A DNA stretch of 64,000 nt from Escherichia phage vB_Eco_mar004NP2. This document shows, one piece after another, positions 27,455-51,237 of the stretch (the stretch's first letter is position 1; each line of letters starts with the position of its first letter). The position numbers were made by a program, and so were the translations under genes. The stretch lies in sequence record OR896837.1; one strand, 5' to 3'. The notes under the pieces were generated by a model, which saw only the letters and a list, made by a program, of their open reading frames with translations, searched no databases and was not told the DNA's origin.

Positions 27455-27478
27455 TCTACATATAAAATAAATAATAAA

Positions 27479-27513
27479 CCCCAGTGGATTTTGTCCACTG
27501 GGATTTTCTTTTA
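27479..27513. terminator. Bidirectional rho-independent terminator at the early/late boundary
   Basis: 9-bp stem cccagtgga / tccactggg with ttttg loop, T-runs on both strands, between convergent dut and tail-fibre genes. Confidence 0.65.
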
Positions 27514-28158
27514 TTGTGATACTAATTGTACCTTTAATTGCTCAAGCTCTTTCTCTAGATCTTCAATCCGTTTAATAAGATCTTGCACAACATGCATAGT
27601 GTCAAGAAGCATTGGAGTTGTATCTAATTCCTTTTGCTCCTGCTCTATTCCGTCATCATTATAAAATTTTCTAGTTTTTACATAAAGTGGTTCTATAGTC
27701 TCTACTTGCTGAGCAATAACCCCACGTCGGACACGAGATTTTTCATCGTTATTATATACAAAGGATTGGAATTCTAATCCTTTTAATACCTCGATGGACT
27801 TAGTTGCGTCTATAGCCTTAATATCATGCTTTAAGCGAGAATCAGATACAGCATTTAATTGCAAAGTATAGGTTGCTGAAGCACCTGGCCACCAAGAATA
27901 AAAATAAATACTATTATTATTCGGCTGAATTTTTAAACGCACACCAAATTTATTATCATCATCTCCCGCTACCTGCCAACAAGAATCTGCAAATGAGCCT
28001 AAGTCATTATGAATTAATCCAAAATGTGCAGATGTCTTATACCCTGCGGAAGAAGACTGGGAACCGCTCAATATACTATTAAAGTTAAATGTACTACCTA
28101 TATTGACCTCGTTCTGAGAAAGAGTACCTTGTACCCAGCCAGTCTGAGACCACGCCAT
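27511..28158 (-). CDS. Tail-fibre C-terminal segment with intramolecular-chaperone (S74-type) domain; likely 3' part of a frameshift-split fibre gene
   Basis: SDSRLKHDIKAI autocleavage-type motif then coiled-coil C-terminus; 17 open in-frame codons upstream of the ATG. Confidence 0.6.
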   Translation of the reverse strand: MAWSQTGWVQGTLSQNEVNIGSTFNFNSILSGSQSSSAGYKTSAHFGLIHNDLGSFADSCWQVAGDDDNKFGVRLKIQPNNNSIYFYSWWPGASATYTLQLNAVSDSRLKHDIKAIDATKSIEVLKGLEFQSFVYNNDEKSRVRRGVIAQQVETIEPLYVKTRKFYNDDGIEQEQKELDTTPMLLDTMHVVQDLIKRIEDLEKELEQLKVQLVSQ

Positions 28159-28177
28159 GCCAGTAACTAATCTAGCT

Positions 28178-28927
28178 TTAAAACGATCCGTTACAAAATC
28201 CCCATTTATCTACAAGCTGGGCGGAATTCGATTTACCGGTAGATTTATTGTCTATTAGTAGTTCAGTAGAGTAGGTGCCACCAATAGTAGCTTTAGCTCG
28301 TAGTGTACTTACAGCCTCACTACTAGTACCTACTTTATACTCAGATAGTACACTCCCGCCATAAACAGTAGTACCAGTATTAGGTTTGACAGCATCACCA
28401 CTAATAACACTCCACGAAGTCTTTGCAGCCACGAACCCACCAGAAGCACGGATTACCCAGACACCTATAAAGCTGTTTGGAATAATAGTACCTTTTATTC
28501 CATAACGCCCATAAACAGGGTCCGCTAAGTTTGCATCAAAACTAAATCCGTATTGGTTATCAGGATTAACTACGGCGAATGATTTAGATGCACCTCCAGG
28601 AGCGGCACCTAAGCCGTTTTCACCACCAATCGCCCCAATAAGACCAAATCTAGATGAATATCTATTAAGCGCTTCTTCATATGCACCAGCAATAGCGCCA
28701 GGAAAACTACCAGTAATATTGGGTGCTGCAGCTTCTGATATTGAACCAGCTTGACCAGCATCCCCCCCCCCCCCACCGTCACCACGAGCGAATAACCCTT
28801 TGATTGAATTTAGTTGCACACCATTACGATCTGGGACGCGGAAAGTAGTGGTACCATCTCCCGTAGAATATTTCCCACGTTGTCCTACATCTGCTAACCA
28901 AACTGAATCATCTATAGCTCCAACCAT
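28178..28927 (-). CDS. Tail-fibre middle segment with phage tail-collar-type domain and poly-Gly tract
   Basis: Frame is open a further 53 codons upstream of its first ATG with no start codon; the collar motif SDGQLLNRADWPELW lies upstream of the Met, TTFRVPDRNG downstream. Confidence 0.55.
   Translation of the reverse strand: MVGAIDDSVWLADVGQRGKYSTGDGTTTFRVPDRNGVQLNSIKGLFARGDGGGGGDAGQAGSISEAAAPNITGSFPGAIAGAYEEALNRYSSRFGLIGAIGGENGLGAAPGGASKSFAVVNPDNQYGFSFDANLADPVYGRYGIKGTIIPNSFIGVWVIRASGGFVAAKTSWSVISGDAVKPNTGTTVYGGSVLSEYKVGTSSEAVSTLRAKATIGGTYSTELLIDNKSTGKSNSAQLVDKWGFCNGSF
28762..28774. repeat. 13-nt C/G homopolymer inside the tail-fibre coding sequence
   Basis: Plus-strand C13 (G13 on coding strand) encoding GDGGGGGD in frame. 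Confidence 0.9.
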
Positions 28928-28986
28928 TTGTGCATACGCCCAAAGTTCAGGCCAGTCAGCCCTGTTAAGAAGCTGCCCATCAGAAA

Positions 28987-29283
28987 CTACCTCATAAGGT
29001 TGAATATACGCACGGCTATCTCGAAGATGAAAATCCCCACCCCGTAGTTCATAACACCATTCATTGTGGGTCCTACTGTGCCAGTATTAAGTTTGTTCTC
29101 CACCCAACGCTTAGTTGCGGCATCATAGTCACTAACAGGATCTCCAGCAAGAGGGGTAGATCCAATAGGACGCACATTTAGCCATGCTGCACGGTCTGCT
29201 AAGTCACTCAGGTTATTATTTTTATTAAGTGACTCATTTTTAAGTTTTGTAATATCCGTAGGAATTACTGTTTTAGTTACCAT
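28987..29283 (-). CDS. Tail-fibre N-terminal segment (frameshifted relative to the downstream collar-domain frame)
   Basis: Fibre-like N-terminus (DYDAATKRWVENKL); last ~15 residues look like out-of-frame read-through. Confidence 0.5.
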   Translation of the reverse strand: MVTKTVIPTDITKLKNESLNKNNNLSDLADRAAWLNVRPIGSTPLAGDPVSDYDAATKRWVENKLNTGTVGPTMNGVMNYGVGIFIFEIAVRIFNLMR

Positions 29284-29292
29284 TATAAAACC

Positions 29293-29571
29293 TTATGCCC
29301 ATACTCTAAGAGGCTGTTCTAGCTGAACTATAAAAGGCTCGAAGGATTCGTAAGTAAAGGATTCATCAAGAATCCTTACATTAATATAATACCCTTCATT
29401 ACGGATGCATCTAGGTTCCTCATCACCTAGCGGAGAGATTTCAGTATAAGTATATCCAATTTCGTCAAGCATTATTTGGTTTTGCAAATTTTCATTAGTA
29501 TCCCACTCTATTTTTAAGAGAAAATCTTTATATGCTGATTTATCCGTGAATTTTAGGATTATATCTCTCAT
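29293..29571 (-). CDS. Hypothetical protein between the two tail-fibre genes
   Basis: ORF track; ATGA overlap with upstream gene. Confidence 0.5.
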   Translation of the reverse strand: MRDIILKFTDKSAYKDFLLKIEWDTNENLQNQIMLDEIGYTYTEISPLGDEEPRCIRNEGYYINVRILDESFTYESFEPFIVQLEQPLRVWA

Positions 29572-31625
29572 ACATACTCCTTCATTTGTCTATCAGTTAG
29601 TTCCTTATGCCAGATTCTAAAGTTTCTAACGTGCCCGAAAAGATGACGTTCGCCCCTAGTTGTTTGTCCTCCAATCCTTATAGTAGCCGTTGATTGTATG
29701 TATCTCCATTCCGTTTTTGTTTCGCTTGATATTCTGGCATTACTTACACAGCAAGTATTGTAATCACTCTTTACTCTCATTCCCATGATCATCTTTTTTA
29801 GTTTTGCATTCTCGTAAACCCTTCTGTTTGATTTACCTATATCGCAATAAGGGAAACCATCATTATCGCCTTCGGCAGATCCGAAAGCAAGAATAATAGC
29901 CGCTTCGGTTTGATGACCTCTGGTATCAAAAACACGTGGCGCTGCACTTGGCGTTATACTCCAGTTTTTATGAGCTTCCACAAGTACTGTAAACGGCAAA
30001 TTGTAAAGGTTGTTTTTTATTGGTAATGTGACCATATCGCTTGCCCGTGTTACTGGAGTCTCTTCTGTAATAATAAACGATGAAGCGCACGCCCCGCCTT
30101 CAACTTGAGGGGTAGCTACCTGTAAGTACTCTCCACCAGAATAAGTGCCAGGTGAAACAGGTGGAGCAATTTGGATCTGAGAGCTAACCATATTATCAAT
30201 AGCTTCAGATTGATATGTAACCTCGAAATAAATCCATCCATTAGATTCTTTCTCCGCTCGGGCGGTTATTCTTGCAGCCCCTACTTCCGTTTTTCTAATG
30301 GACATATCTGTTATATTAAGATATGCATCTGCTAGATAAAAATATGCGGATCCGTCATATCTTTCAAATCTTATACGACATTGTATATTAGCACTATCGC
30401 TTTTTACACGACATGATGTTGTAACATACTTTTCAGTTCCGGTAACATCGACACCTCTTCCTCCTGAAATCGCAGCGATATTCATTGCCGTATTTGTCCC
30501 AATTTTTTCGTCCTTTATTTGAAACCGCCCATAAGTAAATCCAAACTCATCAACACCACTTTCTGTTATAGTTACACTTGTTGTAGCTTCCCACTTAGAT
30601 GGCGTAAGTGAGTTAAGATGATAGTTAGTTCTTTGCCCCTCAATGAGCAAACCATCCTTTTCAAATCTAGGTTCATTAATCCCCGCAACAGTTAATACAC
30701 CTGATTTATTAATATATGTCGCAGTTGATGCACGTGTAAAGCTAACAATCTTGTCACTGGGCAGTGTTATTTCCTCATCACCGACTGTTATTTTTTTTTT
30801 ATAGTCTGGCGCAAAGCCGGTGATCATATCTAGAGAATCGTTAAACGGTATCCATACATCTGGAAGAGGTTGAATGTCGGGGGTAGAATTAGCAGCAGCT
30901 TCTGATCTATCAGCCTCAGTTTTTGAACGATCGGCTTCAGTTTTAGCAGTATTAGCACTATTAGCAGCATTAGTAGCTTGTTTTCCTGCTTCAGTAGCAG
31001 AATTAGCAGCACTAGTTGCAGAATTAGCAGCTTGGTTTTTTAGCGTGGTAGTTTCTGTTATCGCGCTATTCTTAATGCCTTGTGTGTCTGTTTTTAACTG
31101 CGCAACATCTGCCTTTATAGCTGTTGTCTCTGTTACAGCACTGTTTTTAATGGCCTGAGTATCTGATTTTAGCTGCTCAACATCTGATTTTAAGCCTTGA
31201 ATAGTAGTTACTGACTGACTAGCTGAAGTTGCGGAACTAGCTGCGTTATTCTCACTAGCTTTGGCTTTAGTCTCACTAGCTTTGGCTTTAGTCTCACTAG
31301 CTTTTGCATTAGTCTCGGATACTTTAGCAGCGGATGCAGATGTTGCAGCTTGTCTAGCGAATGTTTCTGCTTCATCCCTAAAACCTTTAGAATTGGCAGC
31401 AGACGCAGCAGCATTAGTCTCACTAATTTTAGCGTTAGTTTCGCTAATTTTTGCAGCCGCAGCAGATTTAGCAGCAGCCTCTATAGAAGATACTAACTCA
31501 TTAGCAGTAATAGAGCTAATAGAATTTCCAAGAGTTACTGTGTATCTAGGAAATTTACTAGCAGTAGCTTTAGTATCATCAATATTTAATATTTGTTGTA
31601 CAATAATCTTAGTAGTTATTGCCAT
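29568..31625 (-). CDS. L-shaped tail fibre protein (T5 pb1-like N-terminus, Ala/Ser/Thr-rich repeat shaft, distinct C-terminal domain)
   Basis: N-terminus resembles T5 pb1 as remembered; repeat shaft SETNAKASETKAKASETKAKASE; 685 aa, far shorter than T5 pb1. Confidence 0.7.
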   Translation of the reverse strand: MAITTKIIVQQILNIDDTKATASKFPRYTVTLGNSISSITANELVSSIEAAAKSAAAAKISETNAKISETNAAASAANSKGFRDEAETFARQAATSASAAKVSETNAKASETKAKASETKAKASENNAASSATSASQSVTTIQGLKSDVEQLKSDTQAIKNSAVTETTAIKADVAQLKTDTQGIKNSAITETTTLKNQAANSATSAANSATEAGKQATNAANSANTAKTEADRSKTEADRSEAAANSTPDIQPLPDVWIPFNDSLDMITGFAPDYKKKITVGDEEITLPSDKIVSFTRASTATYINKSGVLTVAGINEPRFEKDGLLIEGQRTNYHLNSLTPSKWEATTSVTITESGVDEFGFTYGRFQIKDEKIGTNTAMNIAAISGGRGVDVTGTEKYVTTSCRVKSDSANIQCRIRFERYDGSAYFYLADAYLNITDMSIRKTEVGAARITARAEKESNGWIYFEVTYQSEAIDNMVSSQIQIAPPVSPGTYSGGEYLQVATPQVEGGACASSFIITEETPVTRASDMVTLPIKNNLYNLPFTVLVEAHKNWSITPSAAPRVFDTRGHQTEAAIILAFGSAEGDNDGFPYCDIGKSNRRVYENAKLKKMIMGMRVKSDYNTCCVSNARISSETKTEWRYIQSTATIRIGGQTTRGERHLFGHVRNFRIWHKELTDRQMKEYV
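31251..31313. repeat. Three tandem 21-bp repeats inside the tail-fibre gene
   Basis: ctcactagctttggctttagt x2 plus a degenerate third copy; encodes the KASETKA heptad-like repeats. Confidence 0.7.
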
Positions 31626-32047
31626 TATCTAGTTACCCCATCACTGATAAATACTTTACCCTCCATTATACGAAAAGAGCTAATAGCTGATCCTATGACA
31701 TCTCGTGTCATAATTATATCATAGTATCCTGCAAAACGTTGGCGAGGGTTATACTTATCTCTCTCTTTGGTAGCTTTTTCACCAATATTATCTACCGCCT
31801 CTACAGGTAAACTTATAGCTATAGCACCTTGAGCAGCATCAATAATTTTAGTAGTAAAAGATGCCAAAGTTTCCGCGTTCTCATCAAGCCCCGCCTTTAT
31901 AGTACCCCTTAGGGAATACCCTGTTAAGTTAACAGGGGTATTTGTAGGTGGATAAGTACTATCATCAACATCTAAGAATTGCATCATTAGACCATAAGGT
32001 ACTTTTTCATCTATTACTAAGTCTATAACTCTATTTTCAGTACTCAT
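31625..32047 (-). CDS. Tail collar protein (T5 p132-like by size and position)
   Basis: 140 aa, immediately upstream of the L-shaped fibre gene. Confidence 0.55.
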
Positions 32048-37683: not shown

Positions 37684-40600
37684 TTAAGAATTTCCTAATG
37701 TTTTCAGACTAGTACCGTTCTCATTCAGAGCTAATTCCACTGCGTCTCTTAGAGCACTACTATTACTAGAAGCAAACTCTCTAAAACTTGCAGCATCCAT
37801 AGCACTAATATTCAGGATGATAGGTCTTCCTGAAGTTGAGTTAGATGAGGTTTTTAGCTCATCATTAGGCGTAGCTTTCATAGGAACCATAGGGGTAACT
37901 ACTTCTGTACCATGCTCACCCATTTGATAGCTAACCCCAGGGTACATATTACCACCTTCGGCACGCGGCACAAATGAATTAGCATTACCAATACCTTGAT
38001 CACCACGTACATAAGATAGTTCTCCAGCATTAGCAGACATAGATACATCAATGTTCTTCTGACGCTCTCCAAGAGTTAAATAACTAGTGGTATCAGCTCC
38101 AGAATCTGCAATACTTGACATACTAGAGGCAGAGGATGCCTGCGCTAATGCCAGAGCACCTGCTAATCCTGCCGCTACCATCAGAGGGATAGAGAACGGG
38201 TATGGTACAGCTGTTGCTGCCTGCATAACTGCTACTGCAGTTTGGATGATAATCCGCTTCTTAGCTGCATCTTGTTGAATCTTCAGCTTTTCAGCTTCTA
38301 GCTTCTTCAATTTAGCTTTAGATGCTTCTGATTTACCATCACGTTTCTGCTCCGCTGCGATAGCTGCATCAATAGCACTAACCTGTTGACTAGTACTATA
38401 CTGAATCATAGAAGATACAGTTTGCATGCCAGAAGCAATCAAGGAGGTAGTATCTAGGGATCCCTGAGAGAACTGAATCATAGCGTTAGTTAAGTTACCC
38501 ATACTTTGAGCCACAGCGGTTGCTTCAGAATTTAATTCAGATAGCTTAGAGATTGCTTGGTCATAAGAAGCCATTCTATTTTGCATATCAGCAAAATCTT
38601 TATCTTCTCCAGATAATCCCGTTGTAGGAGTGTACACAGCACCTACAGAGGATCCTACCTGTTGTTGCATTTGAGCATTACGTTGCGCCGTTAAAGCAGA
38701 CATTTGAGCCCTTGTCTTAGCTATTTCAGCATTCCAGCGCATTTGCTCGTTAGCATTACCTTTGGTAAGTTCCTTCATCTGAGTATAAAAATCTAACTGC
38801 ATTTCCATTTTTTGCATTTCCCCTGCCAGAGGGAACATGGAAGTTAGAGTATTTTCAAAGGCTTCTTGCCTTTTACTGGTCATTTCAGCTTGCTGATCCT
38901 GACGGAATTTCCATATTTCACGTTCAATTTGAGCTTGAGAACGTCTAGACTGTTCAGCCTCTTTCTGTTTATCAGCCTGTTTTGTATACCATTCGTACTT
39001 CTCTTTTTCAATGGTCAATTCAAGATTTAACTGTGCTAGACGATACTGAGTATCTGTCATAGTACGGTTATTTAAGAGAGCTATCTCACGATCTACGCCA
39101 AGAATTTTATCTGTGTAATCCTTGACCTTCTTCTGAGCTTCCATACCCTGATTAGTAAGTTTAAGTTTCTCCAGCTGAATTTTTTCAATTTCTTTCTCAA
39201 CAGCTTTATTTCCCTGGTTTGTTTGAAGAACACGGCGTAAAGCAGCTTCTTGCTCTTCTAACTGTTGGAGTTCTAAACGTCTACCAGCTTCCTGAGCCTT
39301 TTCCTTATCCTTAGTTTGATTATACACATCAGCTATTTTCTGTTGAACTGCTAACTGATTTTTAGTTTCATTACCAGTTAGTTTAACATACTCAGATAGA
39401 GCCTGAGATGCAGTTTTCATTTCAGACAGGGTGTTATAACCCAGGTTAAGGTTTTTAACATATTCATCGGCACTCTTACCGGTACCTAAGGATAGAGATT
39501 CTATATTTTTTATAGCATCTGCCAAAGTAGCACTAGTTTTAGCAGCAGTATCTGTATTCTGAGCAACGTTCTGTATATCATTAGCTAAGTCACTAGCCGT
39601 TTTCTTAGTCTGATTGTACGCTTTCTGCTGCTCAGTTAGTCCTTTTAATACAGTAGAGTTAAAATCGTATACAGCATCAGGATCAGTAGTATCTCTCTGT
39701 AGATTAATTTGCTTCTGAAACTCTGGACTAGCCTTTGCAGCAGCGGCACCAGCAGCTTGATACGCTGATTTCCAAGCATTGAGATTCTCTGTAGAATCCT
39801 CTACTTCCTTACCAAGTCTAGTTACTTGTAGACCCATAGCTGCAGTTTCTGCTACAAATTGCTTATTGGCCTCCGAAGCACCTGCTGCTACAAGACCAAC
39901 AGGAATACCTTCACCAACTTGACGTATAGCTAATTTTGTATAGAAATCTGCTTGTTCCATTCGTTTATCAAACTCAGATTTTAGCTTATTACGCTTATCA
40001 AGAGATTCCTTATACATATCTAGAGCTTTATTATAGCCTTCTTCAGAAGCAGCTAAACTTAAAGCAACAGCACCAACGTTGGTAGGGTCTATCTGTCTAT
40101 TAGTTTTTTCTTGGGCCCTAGCTGCTTCAGCAGATATAGAAGCCTGAGATGTATAAAATACTGTGTTGATAGCATCAATTACTGGCCCTAAATACTTAGC
40201 AGCAGCTTGTTGTATTTTTCTTAGTGCAGCATCTGCATTAGCAGCAAATTGCTCCCACGGAGTTGCACGTAGTACTTCATCTAGGTAGCCAAAACGCTTA
40301 GTAGATTCAGCAATTACCGCGTTAGCGTATGCTTGTTGCTTCTGGAAAGTGGTAAGACTATTAACATTATATGTTATACCTGTGTTTGCAGCATTTAACT
40401 GTTTAGCATAATCAGCGTATGCATCATTAAGACGGATGGTGACACCCAGCTCATCCAGAAGTTCGATTTCTTGTTTAGATACGCCCTTAATTACACGGTT
40501 AAGTGCATCAGTCATATCAATGCCAAGAACAGCAGCCGCACGACGAGCTACTAAACCAAATTTATTAAGTTGTTCGGCATCAAATCCATAAGCAGATGCT

Positions 40601-41367
40601 GAAGATGCCTGTCTCATTGCTTCCTCAAAAGAAATAGCATATCCAGCAGCTTCTTGTAGTGATCTAGCAAGGGTCTGAACAGGAGTACCTGTCTGAGTAC
40701 CTACTATAACACCAAATTTTTCTAGACGATTTAGCTGATCACCTAGTTTAAGTTGTTCAAATGCTGATTGCAAAACGAAGATGTTGGAAGCAAGAGCTGC
40801 GTACATAATAGGTAGACTACCACCGATCTTAGCCATTGCCGCAAAATCACGAGTTGCACCACGTGCTGAACCAGAAGTATTACCAATAGCTCTAGAAGCT
40901 CTACCAGCGGCACCAGCAGTATCATTAAAACCCCTAGCTGTGCCACCTAATGCTCTATTAGTATCATATAATCTATCCTGGACTTTTTCTGTTGCAGCTG
41001 CAACATCATTACCTATTGTTTTAACAGATCTAGAAACTCCATCGAATCCAATTTCTAGTTTATCTGTCACTTCAATAAGCTGGATAGCTAGGTAATCTAG
41101 TTTATCACCAATATCATTAATAGATTTGGTGATACCAGCCATACCCCTACTAGCTTGCATTTTAGTAAGACTTTTTGCTGCTCTGTCTGCTGCCCTCTCA
41201 ATGGAATAAAGAGTTCTGGGCATTTTACCTAACTGCTCATTTGTCAGTTCGGAAGCAGCAGCAGCATTTTCCAACGCATCAGATACGTTTTCAATAGACT
41301 TTGCAGTACGAGTTGCTCCCTTCTGTTTAACGTCTATTAGTAATTCTCGTATTAGCTTATCAGTCAT
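37684..41367 (-). CDS. Tail tape measure protein (T5 pb2-like)
   Basis: 1227 aa, long coiled-coil-rich protein with hydrophobic segment near the C-terminus. Confidence 0.85.
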   Translation of the reverse strand: MTDKLIRELLIDVKQKGATRTAKSIENVSDALENAAAASELTNEQLGKMPRTLYSIERAADRAAKSLTKMQASRGMAGITKSINDIGDKLDYLAIQLIEVTDKLEIGFDGVSRSVKTIGNDVAAATEKVQDRLYDTNRALGGTARGFNDTAGAAGRASRAIGNTSGSARGATRDFAAMAKIGGSLPIMYAALASNIFVLQSAFEQLKLGDQLNRLEKFGVIVGTQTGTPVQTLARSLQEAAGYAISFEEAMRQASSASAYGFDAEQLNKFGLVARRAAAVLGIDMTDALNRVIKGVSKQEIELLDELGVTIRLNDAYADYAKQLNAANTGITYNVNSLTTFQKQQAYANAVIAESTKRFGYLDEVLRATPWEQFAANADAALRKIQQAAAKYLGPVIDAINTVFYTSQASISAEAARAQEKTNRQIDPTNVGAVALSLAASEEGYNKALDMYKESLDKRNKLKSEFDKRMEQADFYTKLAIRQVGEGIPVGLVAAGASEANKQFVAETAAMGLQVTRLGKEVEDSTENLNAWKSAYQAAGAAAAKASPEFQKQINLQRDTTDPDAVYDFNSTVLKGLTEQQKAYNQTKKTASDLANDIQNVAQNTDTAAKTSATLADAIKNIESLSLGTGKSADEYVKNLNLGYNTLSEMKTASQALSEYVKLTGNETKNQLAVQQKIADVYNQTKDKEKAQEAGRRLELQQLEEQEAALRRVLQTNQGNKAVEKEIEKIQLEKLKLTNQGMEAQKKVKDYTDKILGVDREIALLNNRTMTDTQYRLAQLNLELTIEKEKYEWYTKQADKQKEAEQSRRSQAQIEREIWKFRQDQQAEMTSKRQEAFENTLTSMFPLAGEMQKMEMQLDFYTQMKELTKGNANEQMRWNAEIAKTRAQMSALTAQRNAQMQQQVGSSVGAVYTPTTGLSGEDKDFADMQNRMASYDQAISKLSELNSEATAVAQSMGNLTNAMIQFSQGSLDTTSLIASGMQTVSSMIQYSTSQQVSAIDAAIAAEQKRDGKSEASKAKLKKLEAEKLKIQQDAAKKRIIIQTAVAVMQAATAVPYPFSIPLMVAAGLAGALALAQASSASSMSSIADSGADTTSYLTLGERQKNIDVSMSANAGELSYVRGDQGIGNANSFVPRAEGGNMYPGVSYQMGEHGTEVVTPMVPMKATPNDELKTSSNSTSGRPIILNISAMDAASFREFASSNSSALRDAVELALNENGTSLKTLGNS

Positions 41368-41380
41368 GTTTTATTTTTCC

Positions 41381-41415
41381 CAATAAAAAAGGCTCTGGGC
41401 AAATCACCCAGAGCC
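41381..41415 (-). terminator. Rho-independent terminator/attenuator immediately upstream of the tape measure gene
   Basis: Stem ggctctggg / cccagagcc then TTTTTTATT on the minus strand; shares the sequence TTTTTTATTGGGAAAAATAAA with the element at 46361-46388. Confidence 0.55.
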
Positions 41416-41450
41416 AAGCCTCATCGTGGAACGCCCATTGGAGGAAACTT

Positions 41451-41819
41451 TTACCGTGCACGAGATCTAGCATGTGGCTTAACGTTAGGAATCCTTCCGT
41501 TTTGCGGTTTATGCTTCTCAGCACGTTTACGTGCAGCATCTACAGCTTTAGCATCAAATATATTGATAATGTGTAGAACAAATTCTTTCTCTATAGGATC
41601 AGTAATCCCATAAATATCAAATAAAACACCTAGAGCAGCCTTATCTTTACCTATAAAGATAGGAAAGTCACCTGGTATGAAGCAGTCAATTAGACTGTTA
41701 TAAATATTCATACTAGTAGCCACAATAGGTGGAAAGTCTTCAAGTTCAACAGGCATGGCCTTAGGATCAGGCTCTATACCCATTGATTCACAAAGTATTA
41801 AATATTGTTGTTTAGTCAT
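41451..41819 (-). CDS. Hypothetical protein (possible tail assembly chaperone)
   Basis: Position between tail tube and tape measure genes; no motif evidence. Confidence 0.45.
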   Translation of the reverse strand: MTKQQYLILCESMGIEPDPKAMPVELEDFPPIVATSMNIYNSLIDCFIPGDFPIFIGKDKAALGVLFDIYGITDPIEKEFVLHIINIFDAKAVDAARKRAEKHKPQNGRIPNVKPHARSRAR

Positions 41820-41880
41820 TTTAGATGCTGAGCTTTTAATACACTTATCTGCAAAATCAGCAACAGCATCTAGGAGTTCT

Positions 41881-42300
41881 TTACGCTTTTGGGCTACGAA
41901 AAGTGTCTAAGTGGAACACTGTCTGGTTGATCCAAGAATCAAACGCAGCAGAGTTCTGCATGAGCATTACAGCATTATCGCGGCTAAAAGGAACTTCAGT
42001 AGCAGGATCAGCATCTGTTTCAATCAGCATCAGTTTTTCAACGTCACCTACAGTCAAACCGGTCCAACCTTTAATAGCTGCGTCAACGAAGGCTTCAATG
42101 AACTTATCATCATCCTGTACCTGAATCAAAGTACCATTAACCCATTCATCGCGTTTAGCAGAAGAAATAACACGTTTAGAGGTAGCACGAGACATATAGT
42201 TAAGTTCTAATTTAAAGTTCGGCATACCTGGGTAGGAAAGAGTAATAGTACGAGTATCAAGAGTAATATCTTTTAAATTAATCATTTTTAATTTCTCCAA
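41881..42300 (-). CDS. Hypothetical protein (possible tail assembly chaperone)
   Basis: Position only. Confidence 0.45.
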   Translation of the reverse strand: MEKLKMINLKDITLDTRTITLSYPGMPNFKLELNYMSRATSKRVISSAKRDEWVNGTLIQVQDDDKFIEAFVDAAIKGWTGLTVGDVEKLMLIETDADPATEVPFSRDNAVMLMQNSAAFDSWINQTVFHLDTFRSPKA

Positions 42301-43180
42301 AGAAATCTATTCTCACTGGGTCTGAAGAAGCAGTAGGTATAATATCCCACTCAACTCTATACACATCTGAGAAATCTAGGCGTTTTGTAATACGTGCTGA
42401 AGGAAAATCTATAGAAATATTATTATTTCTTATATTTAAAGGTACATCTGTCTCCGGTTCGATATTGTAAACCATATCTCCTGCAAAACGTTTTAAGTAA
42501 TATAGAGAAATGGTTGCCGAAGCATTCATTTCAGTTACATAGGCTCTTTTATTATTATAAATTTTATTTATATCAAAAACACTCTTATCCTCTCTCCAAG
42601 AGCACTGCTGCTGGAAAGATAAAGAGGCAGAAATAAGACCGGGTAAGATGCTGCCATTAGTAGAAGCTATTACTGGGCTGTAAGACATTACTTCACCCTG
42701 TATAATAGAAGCTGCTTCTCTATAGGTAGATACTTCTGAGAATTTCCCAGACTCAATACCAACATTAAGAATTGGTATGTTCTTATCTAAAGAAAAATCT
42801 ACCGTAGATACATAACAGTTTTCAAAATATACACAGTTATTATCTTTATTTACTATATAGATATTGAACATAATAGGTTCAATATTACTACTATATAGTG
42901 GGAGTAAGAAAGTATTACCTTTTCTATCAAAACCTAACCATTCAAAGAAGTTAGCTTCAGTAAGAGTATTACTGAAATTTACTGCTAGAGAGATAGAAGA
43001 GGGGGTTTGAGCATTTATAATAGAGTCTGCATAGTTAGTTCTATGATGAACAGTCCTACGAAGAGTCTTGAATTCCTCGTAGGAAGTCTGTATATCATAG
43101 TTTGATAGGGCATCAAAATGAAATGCCCTACCATCATACTCAACTATAACTTTTGACTCTCTCATTAGAGAGTAGTACAT
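42278..43180 (-). CDS. Tail protein (possibly collar p140-like)
   Basis: 300 aa directly downstream of the tail tube gene; assignment by position. Confidence 0.45.
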   Translation of the reverse strand: MYYSLMRESKVIVEYDGRAFHFDALSNYDIQTSYEEFKTLRRTVHHRTNYADSIINAQTPSSISLAVNFSNTLTEANFFEWLGFDRKGNTFLLPLYSSNIEPIMFNIYIVNKDNNCVYFENCYVSTVDFSLDKNIPILNVGIESGKFSEVSTYREAASIIQGEVMSYSPVIASTNGSILPGLISASLSFQQQCSWREDKSVFDINKIYNNKRAYVTEMNASATISLYYLKRFAGDMVYNIEPETDVPLNIRNNNISIDFPSARITKRLDFSDVYRVEWDIIPTASSDPVRIDFFGEIKND

Positions 43181-43184
43181 TTAA

Positions 43185-44555
43185 TTAGCCACCAGAACCG
43201 TCTTTAGCTACAGCTTTCACAGTAACTTCTCCAGTCTTAGTAGTATCCGCAGTTAATAGACCAGATTCTGGATCAATTGTAGCTGCATCACCGCTAGAAA
43301 TAGACCAAGTTACAGCACTATTAGTAGCATCTGACGGAGTTACTTCAACAGACATCTGTAGAGTATTGCTATTCTCCACTGAAGTGACATTACCAGCTGA
43401 TTTAACTGTGATTGATTCAACTAGTTTTGGTGGAGTTTTAGCGCCATCTCCTGTAGCAATCAGATTAGCCACAGTGGTTTTAGTATACTTGTTAGAAAAA
43501 CCAAGATAACCTTCATCACCAGTATCCAGATCTGTAGGGATAGCTTTAAACTCTACTGAAGTACCAAGTACATCAACAGTCTCAATATTAGGAATATTAA
43601 CATGCGCCTGTTTAGCAACTAACACAGCTGCCGGACGTTCATCATCATATTCACCACCAAGGATAAGTGCAACTTCAAACTTGTTAACTACCTTAAGAGT
43701 TTTAATTAGATCTTTATATAGCTCCATAGATCCTAGAGCTTTATCATTAAGGTAAGCTGTCAGAGAACCAGTTAGTTCAAACGCACCAGTAAATGAACCG
43801 ATCGGAATATTTACACGGGACATAATATTGGGGGTTAGGTACGTAATATTGTTATTAATGGTGAAAGTACCTCCAGTAATAGGGATATCATATGCCTTAT
43901 CAGAATCCATATCCTTAATTTTCAGGATAGTCAATTTGTTCTTGATATAAGAACTCTGAATAGTCATATAAGTTTCATCATCAACACCTACAGTATCAGG
44001 ATCAAATGGTTGCTCATCCAAAGGAATAAGCTGGTTACCATTACCTGACCAAGTTACACGACCAATATCCTCAATATCAACGTTAACTTCTGCCTGGTTG
44101 ATCTGGCAAGAGTCGATGTAACTCCATGCTTTGTCAGTCAGGATGTAGATATGCAGCATTGCCAGTTCGTGGTACGCGTTATCTTTAAAGTTAACCATAA
44201 AATTGGTTTCGTTATTATGTGCTCCTGTATCACCTTTTAGGTTAAGAGCTTTACCGCTAGAAATAGCATGCCATAACATATAGTCAGGGACAATCTGTTT
44301 GTTAGTAGTTTTATCTATATATGGCAGGATATAAGTAGAGAAACTCCACTCAGCCGCGTTTAAAGAGTCATTAAAACGTTTAGAACCACGAGTTGGACGC
44401 GGACCAGCTTCATTAACAGTAATATCTGTTAAGTTACTGTCCTGACCCCAAGAAATATCATCCTGAACTAGAATCTCTTGCGTGTTGGTCTTATTATGAC
44501 CAGTCTTAACCGTAGACACGAAGATTCGAGTATTACGTAATAGTTGTAAAGACAT
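43185..44555 (-). CDS. Major tail tube protein (T5 pb6-like) with C-terminal Ig-like domain
   Basis: 456 aa; C-terminal Ig-like block (NSAVTWSISSGDAATIDPESGLLTA). Confidence 0.8.
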   Translation of the reverse strand: MSLQLLRNTRIFVSTVKTGHNKTNTQEILVQDDISWGQDSNLTDITVNEAGPRPTRGSKRFNDSLNAAEWSFSTYILPYIDKTTNKQIVPDYMLWHAISSGKALNLKGDTGAHNNETNFMVNFKDNAYHELAMLHIYILTDKAWSYIDSCQINQAEVNVDIEDIGRVTWSGNGNQLIPLDEQPFDPDTVGVDDETYMTIQSSYIKNKLTILKIKDMDSDKAYDIPITGGTFTINNNITYLTPNIMSRVNIPIGSFTGAFELTGSLTAYLNDKALGSMELYKDLIKTLKVVNKFEVALILGGEYDDERPAAVLVAKQAHVNIPNIETVDVLGTSVEFKAIPTDLDTGDEGYLGFSNKYTKTTVANLIATGDGAKTPPKLVESITVKSAGNVTSVENSNTLQMSVEVTPSDATNSAVTWSISSGDAATIDPESGLLTADTTKTGEVTVKAVAKDGSGG

Positions 44556-50136: not shown

Positions 50137-50588
50137 TATAAGAACCTTGCGAATCCTGATTTTGTTTCAGTCTTGACTTGTGTCTTTTCTTGAGGATTCT
50201 GTAATTTGTCTTTCTGCTTTTGAACCCACGCTTTTTGCTTATTAGCAGAAAATAAAGGAGGTTCTTTTGTGTAAACCTTATGTAATAATTGGTGATGGTG
50301 CTGGCACAATGTTACCACGTCCCTAACTAACTCATGCTCATATTTCTTGTAGAATGCTTCCCTATTTGAAAGGACGATATTCTCATCAGTGAAATCCAGC
50401 TGGAGTTCTTTAGCAAATTTTTTTATTAGCTGAGATATAGTATGATAATGGTGAAGTTCTAGGTCTTCACTACTACCACATATAGCACAGCAACCATCCT
50501 TACTATACCTAGATTTTATACCATCCCTCATTATGGAAATGGCATCACGTTTGTACTTAGTATTAGTGGCCATAATCCTCCAATCCAA
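50136..50588 (-). CDS. HNH endonuclease (free-standing, homing-type)
   Basis: CCAICGSSEDLELHHYH ... CQHHHQLLH: HNH signature with zinc-binding Cys pairs. Confidence 0.7.
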   Translation of the reverse strand: MDWRIMATNTKYKRDAISIMRDGIKSRYSKDGCCAICGSSEDLELHHYHTISQLIKKFAKELQLDFTDENIVLSNREAFYKKYEHELVRDVVTLCQHHHQLLHKVYTKEPPLFSANKQKAWVQKQKDKLQNPQEKTQVKTETKSGFARFL

Positions 50589-51237
50589 AGCTACTTAGAA
50601 AGATTACTATATCCTCAGGAGCAACATTAAAAAATTCCGTGCTTCCTGTAAAATTAGAAAACCCACAGTTTTTATTATAATATTCTCTGTGAACTTCCTT
50701 TTCTAAATCTAAAGCAGTCTCTCTATCTGGCAGATGATACATGGTGAACAAGTATAGGTCAGAAAATCCAGATTCTCTTTTAACTTCATTCAGCCGTTTC
50801 TCAGGGTATAAGCTTATGCCTACTTTAGTACCACTAGAGGAGGACATGATATAGAGGAATCCGCCATTCTCCCACTTAAGAGAACAATAAGGACATCTCT
50901 TACCTTGAGTCAATCCATCTAAGGTAATTAAACAGTCATGCCCATTATTGCAGCGTAGATGTAGTTTTGTTTTAGCATTAGTATAGCTGCTTAACAGAGT
51001 ATACCCTATATTAGATATTCTGTTATTAACTTCATCTAACGATATTGTATTATTGGAGCAGTGTGGACAACCTCTCCCCATATGGAGTATAGAATGTGGT
51101 GTTGCTTCCCAAACATGTGCTCTCTGGCATTTAAATACTGTTTTTGTACGTTGGTTTACATACTCACCGACAATTTGGATTCCACGATCAGCTAATCTAA
51201 TATTTATATCTTTTATTGTTAGCTTTTGTCGACCCAT
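50563..51237 (-). CDS. Putative zinc-finger endonuclease (homing-endonuclease-like, possible GIY-YIG-type C-terminal half)
   Basis: Two CPxC pairs; C-terminal GGFLYIM...GTKVGIS...R...E block reminiscent of GIY-YIG; weak. Confidence 0.45.
   Translation of the reverse strand: MGRQKLTIKDINIRLADRGIQIVGEYVNQRTKTVFKCQRAHVWEATPHSILHMGRGCPHCSNNTISLDEVNNRISNIGYTLLSSYTNAKTKLHLRCNNGHDCLITLDGLTQGKRCPYCSLKWENGGFLYIMSSSSGTKVGISLYPEKRLNEVKRESGFSDLYLFTMYHLPDRETALDLEKEVHREYYNKNCGFSNFTGSTEFFNVAPEDIVIFLSSFGLEDYGH

Follow-up and report, generated by a model that had tools for sequence, protein, structure and literature searches.

The window analysed here is a 64,000-nucleotide stretch of Escherichia phage vB_Eco_mar004NP2 DNA (record OR896837.1), and the gene at 29568-31625 on its minus strand codes for the proximal subunit, attached to the virion, of the two-part lateral (L-shaped) tail fibre; the phage is a Tequintavirus belonging to the mar004NP2 species. 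The reading that best explains the locus, and that we regard as very probable, is that of a shortened, LtfC-anchored proximal fibre that carries a swapped end module resembling a carbohydrate-binding module (CBM) and has a 92-aa partner, with the gene for the distal, S74-bearing fibre broken. A two-part architecture of proximal and distal fibres has already been published for T5-like phages; the finding is real but ordinary, and it leaves the current view of T5-like adsorption unaltered. What is added here is a 16-heptad deletion allele, the linkage of the C-terminal module to a small ORF in 80 of 80 loci, a plug peptide, and recurrent frameshifts in the distal gene. The practical use of these results lies in annotation and phage engineering. 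The locus comprises the following features.

31625..32047, minus strand: LtfC/p132 collar protein of 140 aa, the ring on which the lateral fibre docks (Pfam PF23926, LtfC-like, E=8e-15; 'collar protein' in relatives)
29568..31625, minus strand: proximal lateral-tail-fibre protein, 685 aa, ATG start (phrog_1419; deletion allele of a 796-aa form)
29293..29571, minus strand: 92-aa ORF (phrog_1361) whose start overlaps the fibre gene stop, always linked to the C-terminal module
27511..29283, minus strand: distal (T-shaped, LtfB-like) fibre gene with Peptidase_S74, inactivated, in three ORFs colinear with a 589-aa gene
27476..27506, no strand assigned: bidirectional hairpin terminator separating dut from the end of the fibre operon

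Identity and attachment of the proximal fibre

The fibre locus of the window is 99.2% identical in DNA to that of the vB_Eco_mar004NP2 reference, and the gene order (ltfC, fibre, 92-aa ORF, distal fibre, terminator, dut) is the same in both. A bidirectional terminator is annotated in T5 at the position equivalent to the hairpin, and promoter-like sites in the fibre region are no commoner than in shuffled sequence. The 685-aa protein is deposited as WWD13555.1 and annotated 'tail protein'. Its mar004NP2 orthologue, gp053 (YP_009824673), is 796 aa long and has the full shaft, so that the window copy is the shorter one (Michniewski et al. 2019, PMC6563131). This orthologue is a structural protein, confirmed by MS in virions.

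The pb1-like N-terminus proposed in the initial annotation is borne out by a 48% identity between aa 1-134 and residues 1-126 of T5 pb1 (Ltf, 1396 aa), which is encoded at the same genomic position. The alignment with T5 pb1 had been chosen beforehand as the comparison on which the reading would stand or fall. Past aa 1-134, BLASTP of pb1 against the window protein returned only low-complexity shaft matches and no colinear full-length alignment, and the reading stands. Relative to pb1, the window protein is half as long, differs in its C-terminal two-thirds, lacks the intramolecular chaperone and shows no similarity to the polymannose-binding tip. The N-terminal identity is the one point in favour of a truncated or mis-annotated pb1 orthologue, a reading whose probability we consider negligible: nothing aligns past the shaft, the S74 domain is absent, and the C-terminal 436 aa come from another family. 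The BLASTP comparison refutes the shortened-pb1 reading. A Pfam scan of both the 685-aa and the 796-aa proximal fibres gave zero family matches, Peptidase_S74 included. The proximal fibre is thus without a chaperone domain, as had been claimed, and S74 lies in the separate, broken gene downstream.

A structural reference for the N-terminal part is the branched LtfA/LtfB lateral fibre of DT57C (Golomidova 2016, PMC4728585; Ayala 2023, PDB 8hqz). The proximal fibre matches LtfA 1-229 of 8hqz with E=5e-21, and the alignment, which covers aa 1 to about 250 of the window protein, ends near LtfA residue 235-250. The features involved are as follows.

31506..31625, minus strand: N-terminal anchor, aa 1-40, predicted to insert into the LtfC ring (aligned to DT57C LtfA, 8hqz_d, from residue 1)
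30885..31505, minus strand: heptad-periodic shaft, aa 41-247 (21-nt register; homologous to the LtfA three-helix bundle)

Residues 1-44 show about 80% identity among hundreds of T5-like phages. In the DT57C structure the LtfC ring is dodecameric, and the LtfA helix begins at T40 (PMC10713586). By homology, aa 1 to about 40 are the segment that threads into the LtfC (p132) collar in the manner of T5 pb1 and DT57C LtfA.

DT57C LtfA 1-235 is homologous to the anchor and coiled coil of the window protein, and the window-type fibre, as in DT57C, would have a second fibre hung on the first. The means of hanging it differ. The phiEco32 gp14-like, LtfB-docking region of LtfA (aa 223-471) is absent from the window proximal fibre, which, unlike its DT57C counterpart, terminates in a CBM-like module and has a small ORF downstream. 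The gp15-like N-terminus of LtfB is likewise absent; the window-type distal N-terminus is MVTKTVIPTDITKLK, and alignment with LtfB starts only at residue 206. Whereas DT57C has an S74 chaperone on both subunits, the window has S74 only in the distal gene.

A closer parallel is Bas32 (IrisVonRoten), whose locus is orthologous (ltfC, proximal fibre, 92-aa ORF, distal fibre). Bas32 Gp22 has 93% amino acid identity to the window proximal fibre, and Gp24 is 85% identical to the intact mar004NP2 distal fibre. Gp22 has been described as a 'proximal fibre with a galectin-like domain' that bears a T-shaped distal fibre, and an AlphaFold-Multimer model of Gp22/Gp24 seats the downstream fibre on the end of the proximal one (Humolli et al. 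2025, PMC11990801). The 'galectin-like' C-terminal domain of Gp22 corresponds to the CBM-like domain of the window protein. The Bas32-type distal fibre, with a Gp12-like RBD1, a T5-like RBD2 and an intramolecular chaperone, has a homologous gene in the window that is not intact (-1, +1). Compared with Bas32, 112 shaft residues are missing from the window protein and a single Lys is added, and the distal gene carries two frameshifts; Bas32 in turn lacks the G7 tract of the distal gene. The earlier suggestion of a two-component fibre is upheld by this multimer model, by the LtfC-docking N-terminus of the upstream protein and by the distal fibre, which when intact matches only the distal regions LtfA 511-1073 and LtfB 206-528 of DT57C.

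Heptad repeats and deletion in the shaft

The shaft is written in a 21-nt unit, and in each heptad the fourth residue is typically Ala and the seventh Ser. At a lag of 7, 35% of residues are identical, compared with about 10% at other lags, and this periodicity suggests that the shaft forms a trimeric coiled coil. The following features were located in or near it.

31246..31316, minus strand: 21-bp tandem repeat, 3.4 copies, encoding (A)KASETK heptads (TRF score 121, 94% matches)
31449..31457, minus strand: deletion junction, 9-nt microhomology GCTGCAAAA (breakpoint scan against mar004NP2; protein alignment)
30792..30800, minus strand: A9 run, A6 in relatives, adding one Lys (DYKKKI)

The tandem 21-bp repeats reported in the initial annotation were recovered by TRF. 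To provide a null distribution, the proximal fibre gene was shuffled 200 times with dinucleotides preserved and the shuffles were scored with TRF; none reached the score of 121, and the shuffle maximum was 53. Weaker 21-bp arrays lie at 31410-31455 and 30945-31031. The heptad periodicity spans aa 41-247 and is at its sharpest in the 3.4-copy repeat.

The size of about half that of pb1 is correct for the 685 aa observed here, but it is not the family norm, since the proximal fibre of the closest relatives has 796 aa. The window allele has lost 336 nt in frame relative to the 796-aa form, which corresponds to 112 aa, or exactly 16 heptads. The homology at the junction is 9 nt when exact and 16/18 when imperfect. 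A 'TTT insertion' that BLAST placed near the junction was rejected as an alignment artefact by the exact breakpoint scan. For annotation, the 685-aa size should be read as a deletion allele and not as a separate fibre type.

Other in-frame shaft deletions, which keep the register, occur in relatives: KS_S14 has lost 717 nt between 7-nt microhomologies, and NG_A1 has lost 336 nt at a site different from that in the window. The shafts of T5-type homologues measure 126, 203, 217, 253, 263, 267 and 365 aa. These alleles agree with the earlier proposal that the repeats permit changes in shaft length. Short-homology slippage or recombination between the units would remove whole heptads because each heptad is a 21-nt unit present in many near-identical copies, and the loss of 16 heptads is estimated to shorten the shaft by about 17 nm. 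The window allele is a clear natural case of a coiled-coil shaft changing in length by whole heptads.

The C-terminal module and its 92-aa companion

Beyond the shaft, the C-terminal 436 aa of the proximal fibre belong to a widespread family (phrog_1419/5939, NF048003).

29571..30878, minus strand: mobile C-terminal module, aa 250-685, conserved flanks and variable centre (tblastn and HMM matches in unrelated phage families; conservation profile)
30042..30647, minus strand: beta-sandwich resembling a carbohydrate-binding module, aa 327-528, related to the RcGTA head-spike fibre

Across module homologues the mean identity to the window is 55% in the variable centre and 77-79% in the flanks. The centre (aa 327-528) scores 58.1 bits against NCBIfam NF048003, the GTA head-spike-fibre domain (cutoff 36), and aa 294-543 match residues 43-286 of the RcGTA head-spike fibre Rcc01080 (PDB 6tb9, E=6e-7). 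An AF2 monomer model of aa 236-685, built from a 30-sequence alignment, is confident only at aa ~335-510, with pLDDT below 50 in the conserved flanks; structural matches to it indicate a CBM/lectin-like fold for the central domain. The beta-sandwich is shared with Rcc01080, but in the window it sits within a tail fibre, with conserved flanks around it and a coiled-coil shaft below. The heptad shaft would carry a conserved scaffold bearing a more variable CBM-like beta-sandwich. The RcGTA head-spike fibre binds capsular polysaccharide (PMC10218006). By analogy with these binding data, and from the CBM-like fold matches, we infer that the domain may bind a surface polysaccharide.

The module is joined to at least five distinct N-terminal anchors. 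In phage 21 and lambdoid prophages, the Seuratvirus phages VogelGryff and JenP1, the Warwickvirus tuinn and the Vequintavirus nomine, module identity is 44-71% and small-ORF identity 33-58%, while the side tail fibres of these phages have other N-terminal anchors (lambda Stf PF08400, T1-type and others). This distribution supports the view that aa ~250-685 are a horizontally exchanged end module, shared by lambda-Stf-type, T1-type, Seuratvirus and rV5-type fibres. Such a mobile module bears out the claim that the C-terminal part is swapped relative to T5.

An ORF of about 92 aa lies directly downstream of the module in all 80 sampled IMG/VR loci, and also in VogelGryff, tuinn, phage 21 and nomine; the cassette of module and small ORF occurs in T5-like, T1-like, Seurat-like, rV5-like and lambdoid phages. 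AF2 gives the 92-aa protein an alpha/beta fold (pLDDT 80). Foldseek returned only weak ferredoxin/S10-like matches (E>0.01, TM<=0.45), a PDB profile search gave no match, and the homologue search found 18 close relatives only. The protein may be a trans-acting folding or assembly factor, or a partner of the module. The module has no chaperone of its own, and the product of the overlapping ORF would help it to fold or assemble in trans; replacement of the missing chaperone domain by this co-travelling ORF is likelier than simple absence.

The C-terminal module has no need of a distal fibre, because the cassette occurs without one in about 68 lambdoid prophage loci; in the lambdoid versions a 97-aa membrane protein follows the cassette in place of the distal fibre. 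Where a distal fibre does follow, it begins with a conserved 'TVIPxDITKLK' peptide; roughly 10 loci from three phage families retain it, and the rest of the protein differs among them. A third gene with this start occurs in T5-like, Seurat/Nonag-like and T1-like phages. The peptide is a candidate plug that hangs the distal fibre on the module, and in this lineage the plug of the 589-aa, LtfB-like S74 fibre would dock there. A broader proposal is that the module and the 92-aa ORF are a general socket for this plug, a portable connector for interchangeable distal fibres in unrelated siphoviruses (T5-like, T1-like, Seurat/Nonag-like) with the 92-aa protein as adaptor or chaperone; we offer it only tentatively and think it rather unlikely. 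Being common to several phage families, the cassette and plug peptide could guide modular fibre swapping.

The same loci bear on whether the fibre has one component by design, with the 685-aa protein complete and the downstream S74 fibre an unrelated adhesin that is separately attached or redundant. Occurrence of the module and small ORF without a distal fibre in phage 21, the lambdoid prophage loci and nomine speaks for this, as does repeated loss of the distal gene among T5-like relatives. However, no T5 virion-attachment region is homologous to the intact distal fibre, conservation of its first ~17 residues is confined to genes downstream of this cassette (in three phage families), and the published multimer prediction joins the two fibres. 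A one-component design is improbable, and we retain the two-component reading.

Lesions in the distal fibre gene

In vB_Eco_mar004NP2, a phage 99% identical, the distal gene is whole (gp051, 589 aa), and that phage has been reported to have an ltfB orthologue and two genes upstream of it (PMC6563131). In the window it is in three pieces, 28987-29283 (98 aa), 28178-28927 (249 aa) and 27511-28158 (215 aa), the last of which contains Peptidase_S74 (E=1e-12). A Collar-domain signal in the distal fibre is weak (E=0.04). Three differences from relatives were mapped.

29035..29038, minus strand: frameshift 1, G4 against G5 in relatives (-1)
28205..28207, minus strand: frameshift 2, AAA against AA in relatives (+1)
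28762..28774, minus strand: poly-G tract, G13, in frame, adding two Gly (G7 in four other independent sequences; G6, a frameshift, in KS_S14)

Four genomes, the window included, carry independent frameshifts in the distal gene. These recurrent frameshifts, together with the three tract lengths seen in a set of six independent sequences (G7, G13 and an out-of-frame G6), would suit a contingency locus in which the poly-G tract and other runs switch the distal fibre on and off heritably. Such programmed switching is very unlikely. The tract is G7 in four of the six sequences, including both of the metagenomic ones; collection scans added just two sequences, both G7, too few to uphold phase variation; the two frameshifts in the window lie outside it, as do the breaks in VSe12 and NG_A1; and loss on rough hosts suffices as an explanation. 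The ltf locus has been described as a mutation hot spot, and rough C600 selects ltf deletions (PMC4728585). Recurrent frameshifts in the distal gene are expected, since the fibre is dispensable on rough laboratory hosts.

Sequencing error is conceivable for the frameshifts, which are small indels in or beside short base runs. On the wider supposition of an assembly or sequencing artefact, the true phage would have a proximal gene of 796 aa and an unbroken distal one, the repeats having been collapsed and the base runs miscalled. Both frameshifts and two of the in-frame indels fall in or beside such runs (G5->G4, AA->AAA, G7->G13, A6->A9), the G13 run is unusual, and the shaft is repetitive. 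Nevertheless, 9 exact nt (16/18 imperfect) at the junction are too short for assembly collapse, and the loss is of exactly 16 heptads. There are five single-base indels in about 50 kb relative to NC_048205, and both of the ORF-breaking ones are in the dispensable distal gene, while a +1 at 51099 rejoins an endonuclease ORF that is split in NC_048205. Independent genomes also carry other lesions in the same two genes. We judge such an artefact unlikely. Most simply, the shaft deletion and the distal frameshifts are relaxed-selection damage acquired in propagation, because rough laboratory hosts can be infected without lateral fibres.

Because two frameshifts break the distal gene, the virion of this isolate probably carries only the shortened proximal fibre and is in that sense one-component. 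The isolate is probably without an O-antigen-specific distal fibre and may infect a narrower range of hosts than mar004NP2, PMBT29 or Bas32.

The lateral tail fibre locus and its relatives

The ORF call for the 685-aa fibre protein places it in a T5-like late operon, together with the following features:

31625-32047, ltfC/p132 collar gene (Pfam LtfC-like, E=8e-15)
29568-31625, (-) strand, 685-aa fibre ORF
29293-29571, 92-aa ORF, its start overlapping the stop of the 685-aa gene
27511-29283, three colinear ORFs that make up the distal fibre gene
27476-27506, bidirectional hairpin terminator, facing dut

The identical protein in GenBank is WWD13555.1, 'tail protein [Escherichia phage vB_Eco_mar004NP2]'. 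DNA identity across the fibre region is 99.2% to vB_Eco_mar004NP2 (reference genome NC_048205) and to Salmonella phages SPLA5b and PMBT29, and 94% to phage IrisVonRoten (Bas32). The locus is of the Bas32/mar004NP2/AKFV33 type, which has previously been described and annotated. What is new here lies in the details, namely the exact 16-heptad deletion, the register-preserving allele set, the 100% linkage of the C-terminal module to the small ORF, the wide occurrence of the proposed plug peptide, and the recurrent decay of the distal gene.

In function, this lateral fibre consists of two parts, as does that of DT57C with LtfA and LtfB. It differs from the DT57C pair in that it lacks a gp14/gp15-like junction, its proximal subunit carries no S74 domain, and its end module is a different one.

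The dut and fibre genes converge on the terminator hairpin, which has a 13-bp stem and T-runs on both strands; T5 has an annotated bidirectional terminator at the equivalent position. The window has the collar gene as a single unbroken ORF of 140 aa, where PMBT29 (L003 6056-6476) and the T5 RefSeq genome (L006 6556-6980) have two short ORFs annotated. The split in T5 has been put down to sequence error in the DT57C structure paper (PMC10713586).

N-terminus, heptad shaft and shaft length

The initial annotation described a pb1-like N-terminus, a shaft with tandem 21-bp repeats, and a different C-terminal domain. A BLASTP comparison with T5 pb1 (1396 aa) gave no full-length colinear alignment, the outcome that would have counted against this description; the match was limited to aa 1-134 of the 685-aa protein (48% identity). 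DT57C LtfA aligns with aa 1-250 by BLASTP, and DT57C LtfB gave no match in the same search. All parts of that description are confirmed.

Residues 1-237 also match the LtfA chain of the DT57C cryo-EM model 8hqz (E=5e-21), and the first 44 residues are ~80% identical across hundreds of T5-like genomes. In DT57C, the N-terminal strands of nine LtfA chains are threaded into the ring formed by the LtfC dodecamer, and from T40 onwards LtfA forms a three-helix coiled coil (PMC10713586). We infer that the 685-aa protein would attach to the LtfC ring as LtfA does and would continue into a predicted trimeric coiled-coil shaft.

Tandem Repeats Finder (TRF) detects a 21-bp unit repeated 3.4 times at 31246-31316 (94% matches, score 121), with weaker 21-bp arrays nearby, and the score never exceeded 53 in 200 dinucleotide shuffles of the gene. 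When residues 41-247 are set in 21-nt rows, a single heptad register runs through them, in which position 4 is Ala and position 7 is either Ser or hydrophobic; lag-7 residue identity is 35%, compared to ~10% at other lags.

Sequence comparison shows the 685-aa size to be that of a deletion allele. The gene encodes 796 aa in mar004NP2, PMBT29, SPLA5b, Bas32 and Baret, and phrog_1419 has 793 positions, of which the 685-aa protein matches 134-793. An exact breakpoint scan gives a deletion of 336 nt, or 112 aa (16 heptads), with a 9-nt microhomology (GCTGCAAAA) at the junction, within a 16/18 imperfect repeat. The net length change is 111 aa, since an A6 to A9 run adds one Lys. A genuine deletion is favoured, since assemblers would not collapse a junction of only 9 nt. 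The rise of a coiled coil is ~0.148 nm per residue, so that the lost residues correspond to about 17 nm of shaft.

Other alleles bear out the suggestion that the repeats offer a route to shaft-length variation. KS_S14 (99% identical) has a separate in-frame shaft deletion of 717 nt with a 7-nt microhomology, and NG_A1 has an in-frame shaft deletion of 336 nt at a different site. The T5-type homologues in the protein database have the first residue of the end module at position 126, 203, 217, 253, 263, 267 or 365. Given these alleles and differing module starts, shaft-length variation by whole heptads is real and recurrent.

The C-terminal module and the adjoining small ORF

The NCBIfam 'GTA_spike_fiber' domain model scores residues 327-528 at 58 bits, above its cutoff of 36, and a wider stretch, 294-543, can be aligned with the RcGTA head-spike fibre 6tb9 (E=6e-7). 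In the AF2 monomer, only the beta-sandwich formed by aa ~335-510 is modelled with confidence (pLDDT 70-93). The RcGTA homologue is reported to bind capsular polysaccharide (PMC10218006). Among 30 homologues, variability is concentrated in this central domain (55% identity to the window on average), with conserved flanks at aa 250-330 and 529-685 (77-79%), a pattern that fits a putative ligand-specific domain in a conserved scaffold.

Using tblastn and HMM searches, we found that fibres with differing N-terminal anchors, including T5 pb1-type, lambda Stf-type (PF08400) and T1-type anchors, carry aa ~233-685 as their terminal part, in Demerecviridae, Drexlerviridae, Queuovirinae, Vequintavirinae and lambdoid (pro)phages (>2,600 proteins in total). 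Judging from this distribution, the module is mobile between fibres.

Homologues of the 92-aa ORF lie directly 3' of the module in VogelGryff, tuinn, phage 21 and nomine (33-58% identity), and the module end coincides with the small-ORF start in 80 of 80 IMG/VR loci that were retrieved using the small ORF. The small protein has a predicted alpha/beta fold (pLDDT 80), for which no informative structural match was found. The 685-aa protein has no Pfam domain, Peptidase_S74 included, in agreement with the claim that it lacks a chaperone domain. Because the small ORF is strictly linked to a module that has no intramolecular chaperone, the most economical reading is that it would encode a trans-acting assembly partner of the module.

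In lambdoid (pro)phages, the gene after the cassette of module and small ORF encodes a conserved predicted membrane protein of 97 aa (MDISPLLHALCAVAAQ...), at L012 5159-5452 and in ~68 IMG/VR prophage loci (L020-L093). The distal fibre is absent from these loci, and the membrane protein takes its place.

The distal fibre gene: decay and proposed docking

The chaperone-bearing fibre is, as initially annotated, a separate and broken downstream gene. The intact 589-aa protein of mar004NP2 bears S74 and is homologous to DT57C LtfA 511-1073 (44%) and LtfB 206-528 (57%), with no homology to the T5 virion-attachment region. In the window, Peptidase_S74 is found in the downstream 215-aa ORF (Pfam, E=1e-12). 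Sites in the gene, with the changes relative to mar004NP2, are as follows:

29239-29283, N-terminal peptide site
~29184-29190, in-frame change, -3 nt
29035-29038, -1 frameshift, G5 to G4
28762-28774, poly-G tract on the coding (-) strand, in-frame G7 to G13, two extra Gly
28205-28207, +1 frameshift, AA to AAA

The first ~17 residues of the distal fibre (MVTKTVIPTDITKLK; consensus M[VA]T[KV]T[VI]IP[TA]DIT[KN]LK) recur at the start of the gene after the cassette in loci of T5-like phages, Queuovirinae and Drexlerviridae (L010 from 5359, L011 from 5150, and right after the small ORF in L015-L019, L025, L026 and L070). The proteins that share this peptide are otherwise unrelated in length (231-589 aa) and sequence, which supports a model in which the distal fibre is optional and attaches as a plug in a socket. 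Such an attachment agrees with an AlphaFold-Multimer model of Bas32, in which the Gp22 'proximal fiber' with its 'galectin-like domain' bears a T-shaped Gp24 (PMC11990801), with the conservation of Drexlerviridae distal fibre subunits only at the far N-terminus (PMC8594841), and with the description in mar004NP2 of an ltfB orthologue and two upstream genes, one of which probably co-forms the fibre (PMC6563131).

The -1 and +1 shifts leave the middle ~275 codons of the distal gene out of frame. Over ~50 kb there are only five single-base indels relative to mar004NP2. Two are in the distal fibre gene and a third falls between genes. The fourth lies shortly before the start of the helicase ORF in the window, at a site covered by the longer N-terminus that the reference annotates, and the fifth makes one ORF of a homing endonuclease that the reference has in two pieces. 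Therefore, the only gene with ORF-breaking changes is one that is known not to be needed on rough hosts; Golomidova et al. found that ltf-locus deletions arose on passage in rough E. coli C600 (PMC4728585). The base-run changes in the window may be sequencing errors. The distal gene is also frameshifted independently, each time at a different position, in KS_S14 (L007 4959-6727), NG_A1 (L008 5340-7069) and VSe12 (L014 6289-8015).

The poly-G tract is G7 in mar004NP2 and PMBT29 and in two contigs, one from IMG/VR and one from a human-gut metagenome. In KS_S14 it is G6, and the resulting frameshift is the sole change in the distal gene. This tract may be a slippage hot spot.

Elsewhere in the window, 38674-43199, including most of the tape-measure gene, is 94.2% identical to mar004NP2, compared to ~99.4% in other regions, and ~250 nt (38674-38926) have no alignment to it, suggesting a mosaic exchange. 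At 50563-51237(-), the window has a single 224-aa ORF where NC_048205 annotates a 66-aa hypothetical protein and a 172-aa homing endonuclease. At 51099 the window differs by +1, which fuses the two, and the frameshift may belong to the reference and not to the window.
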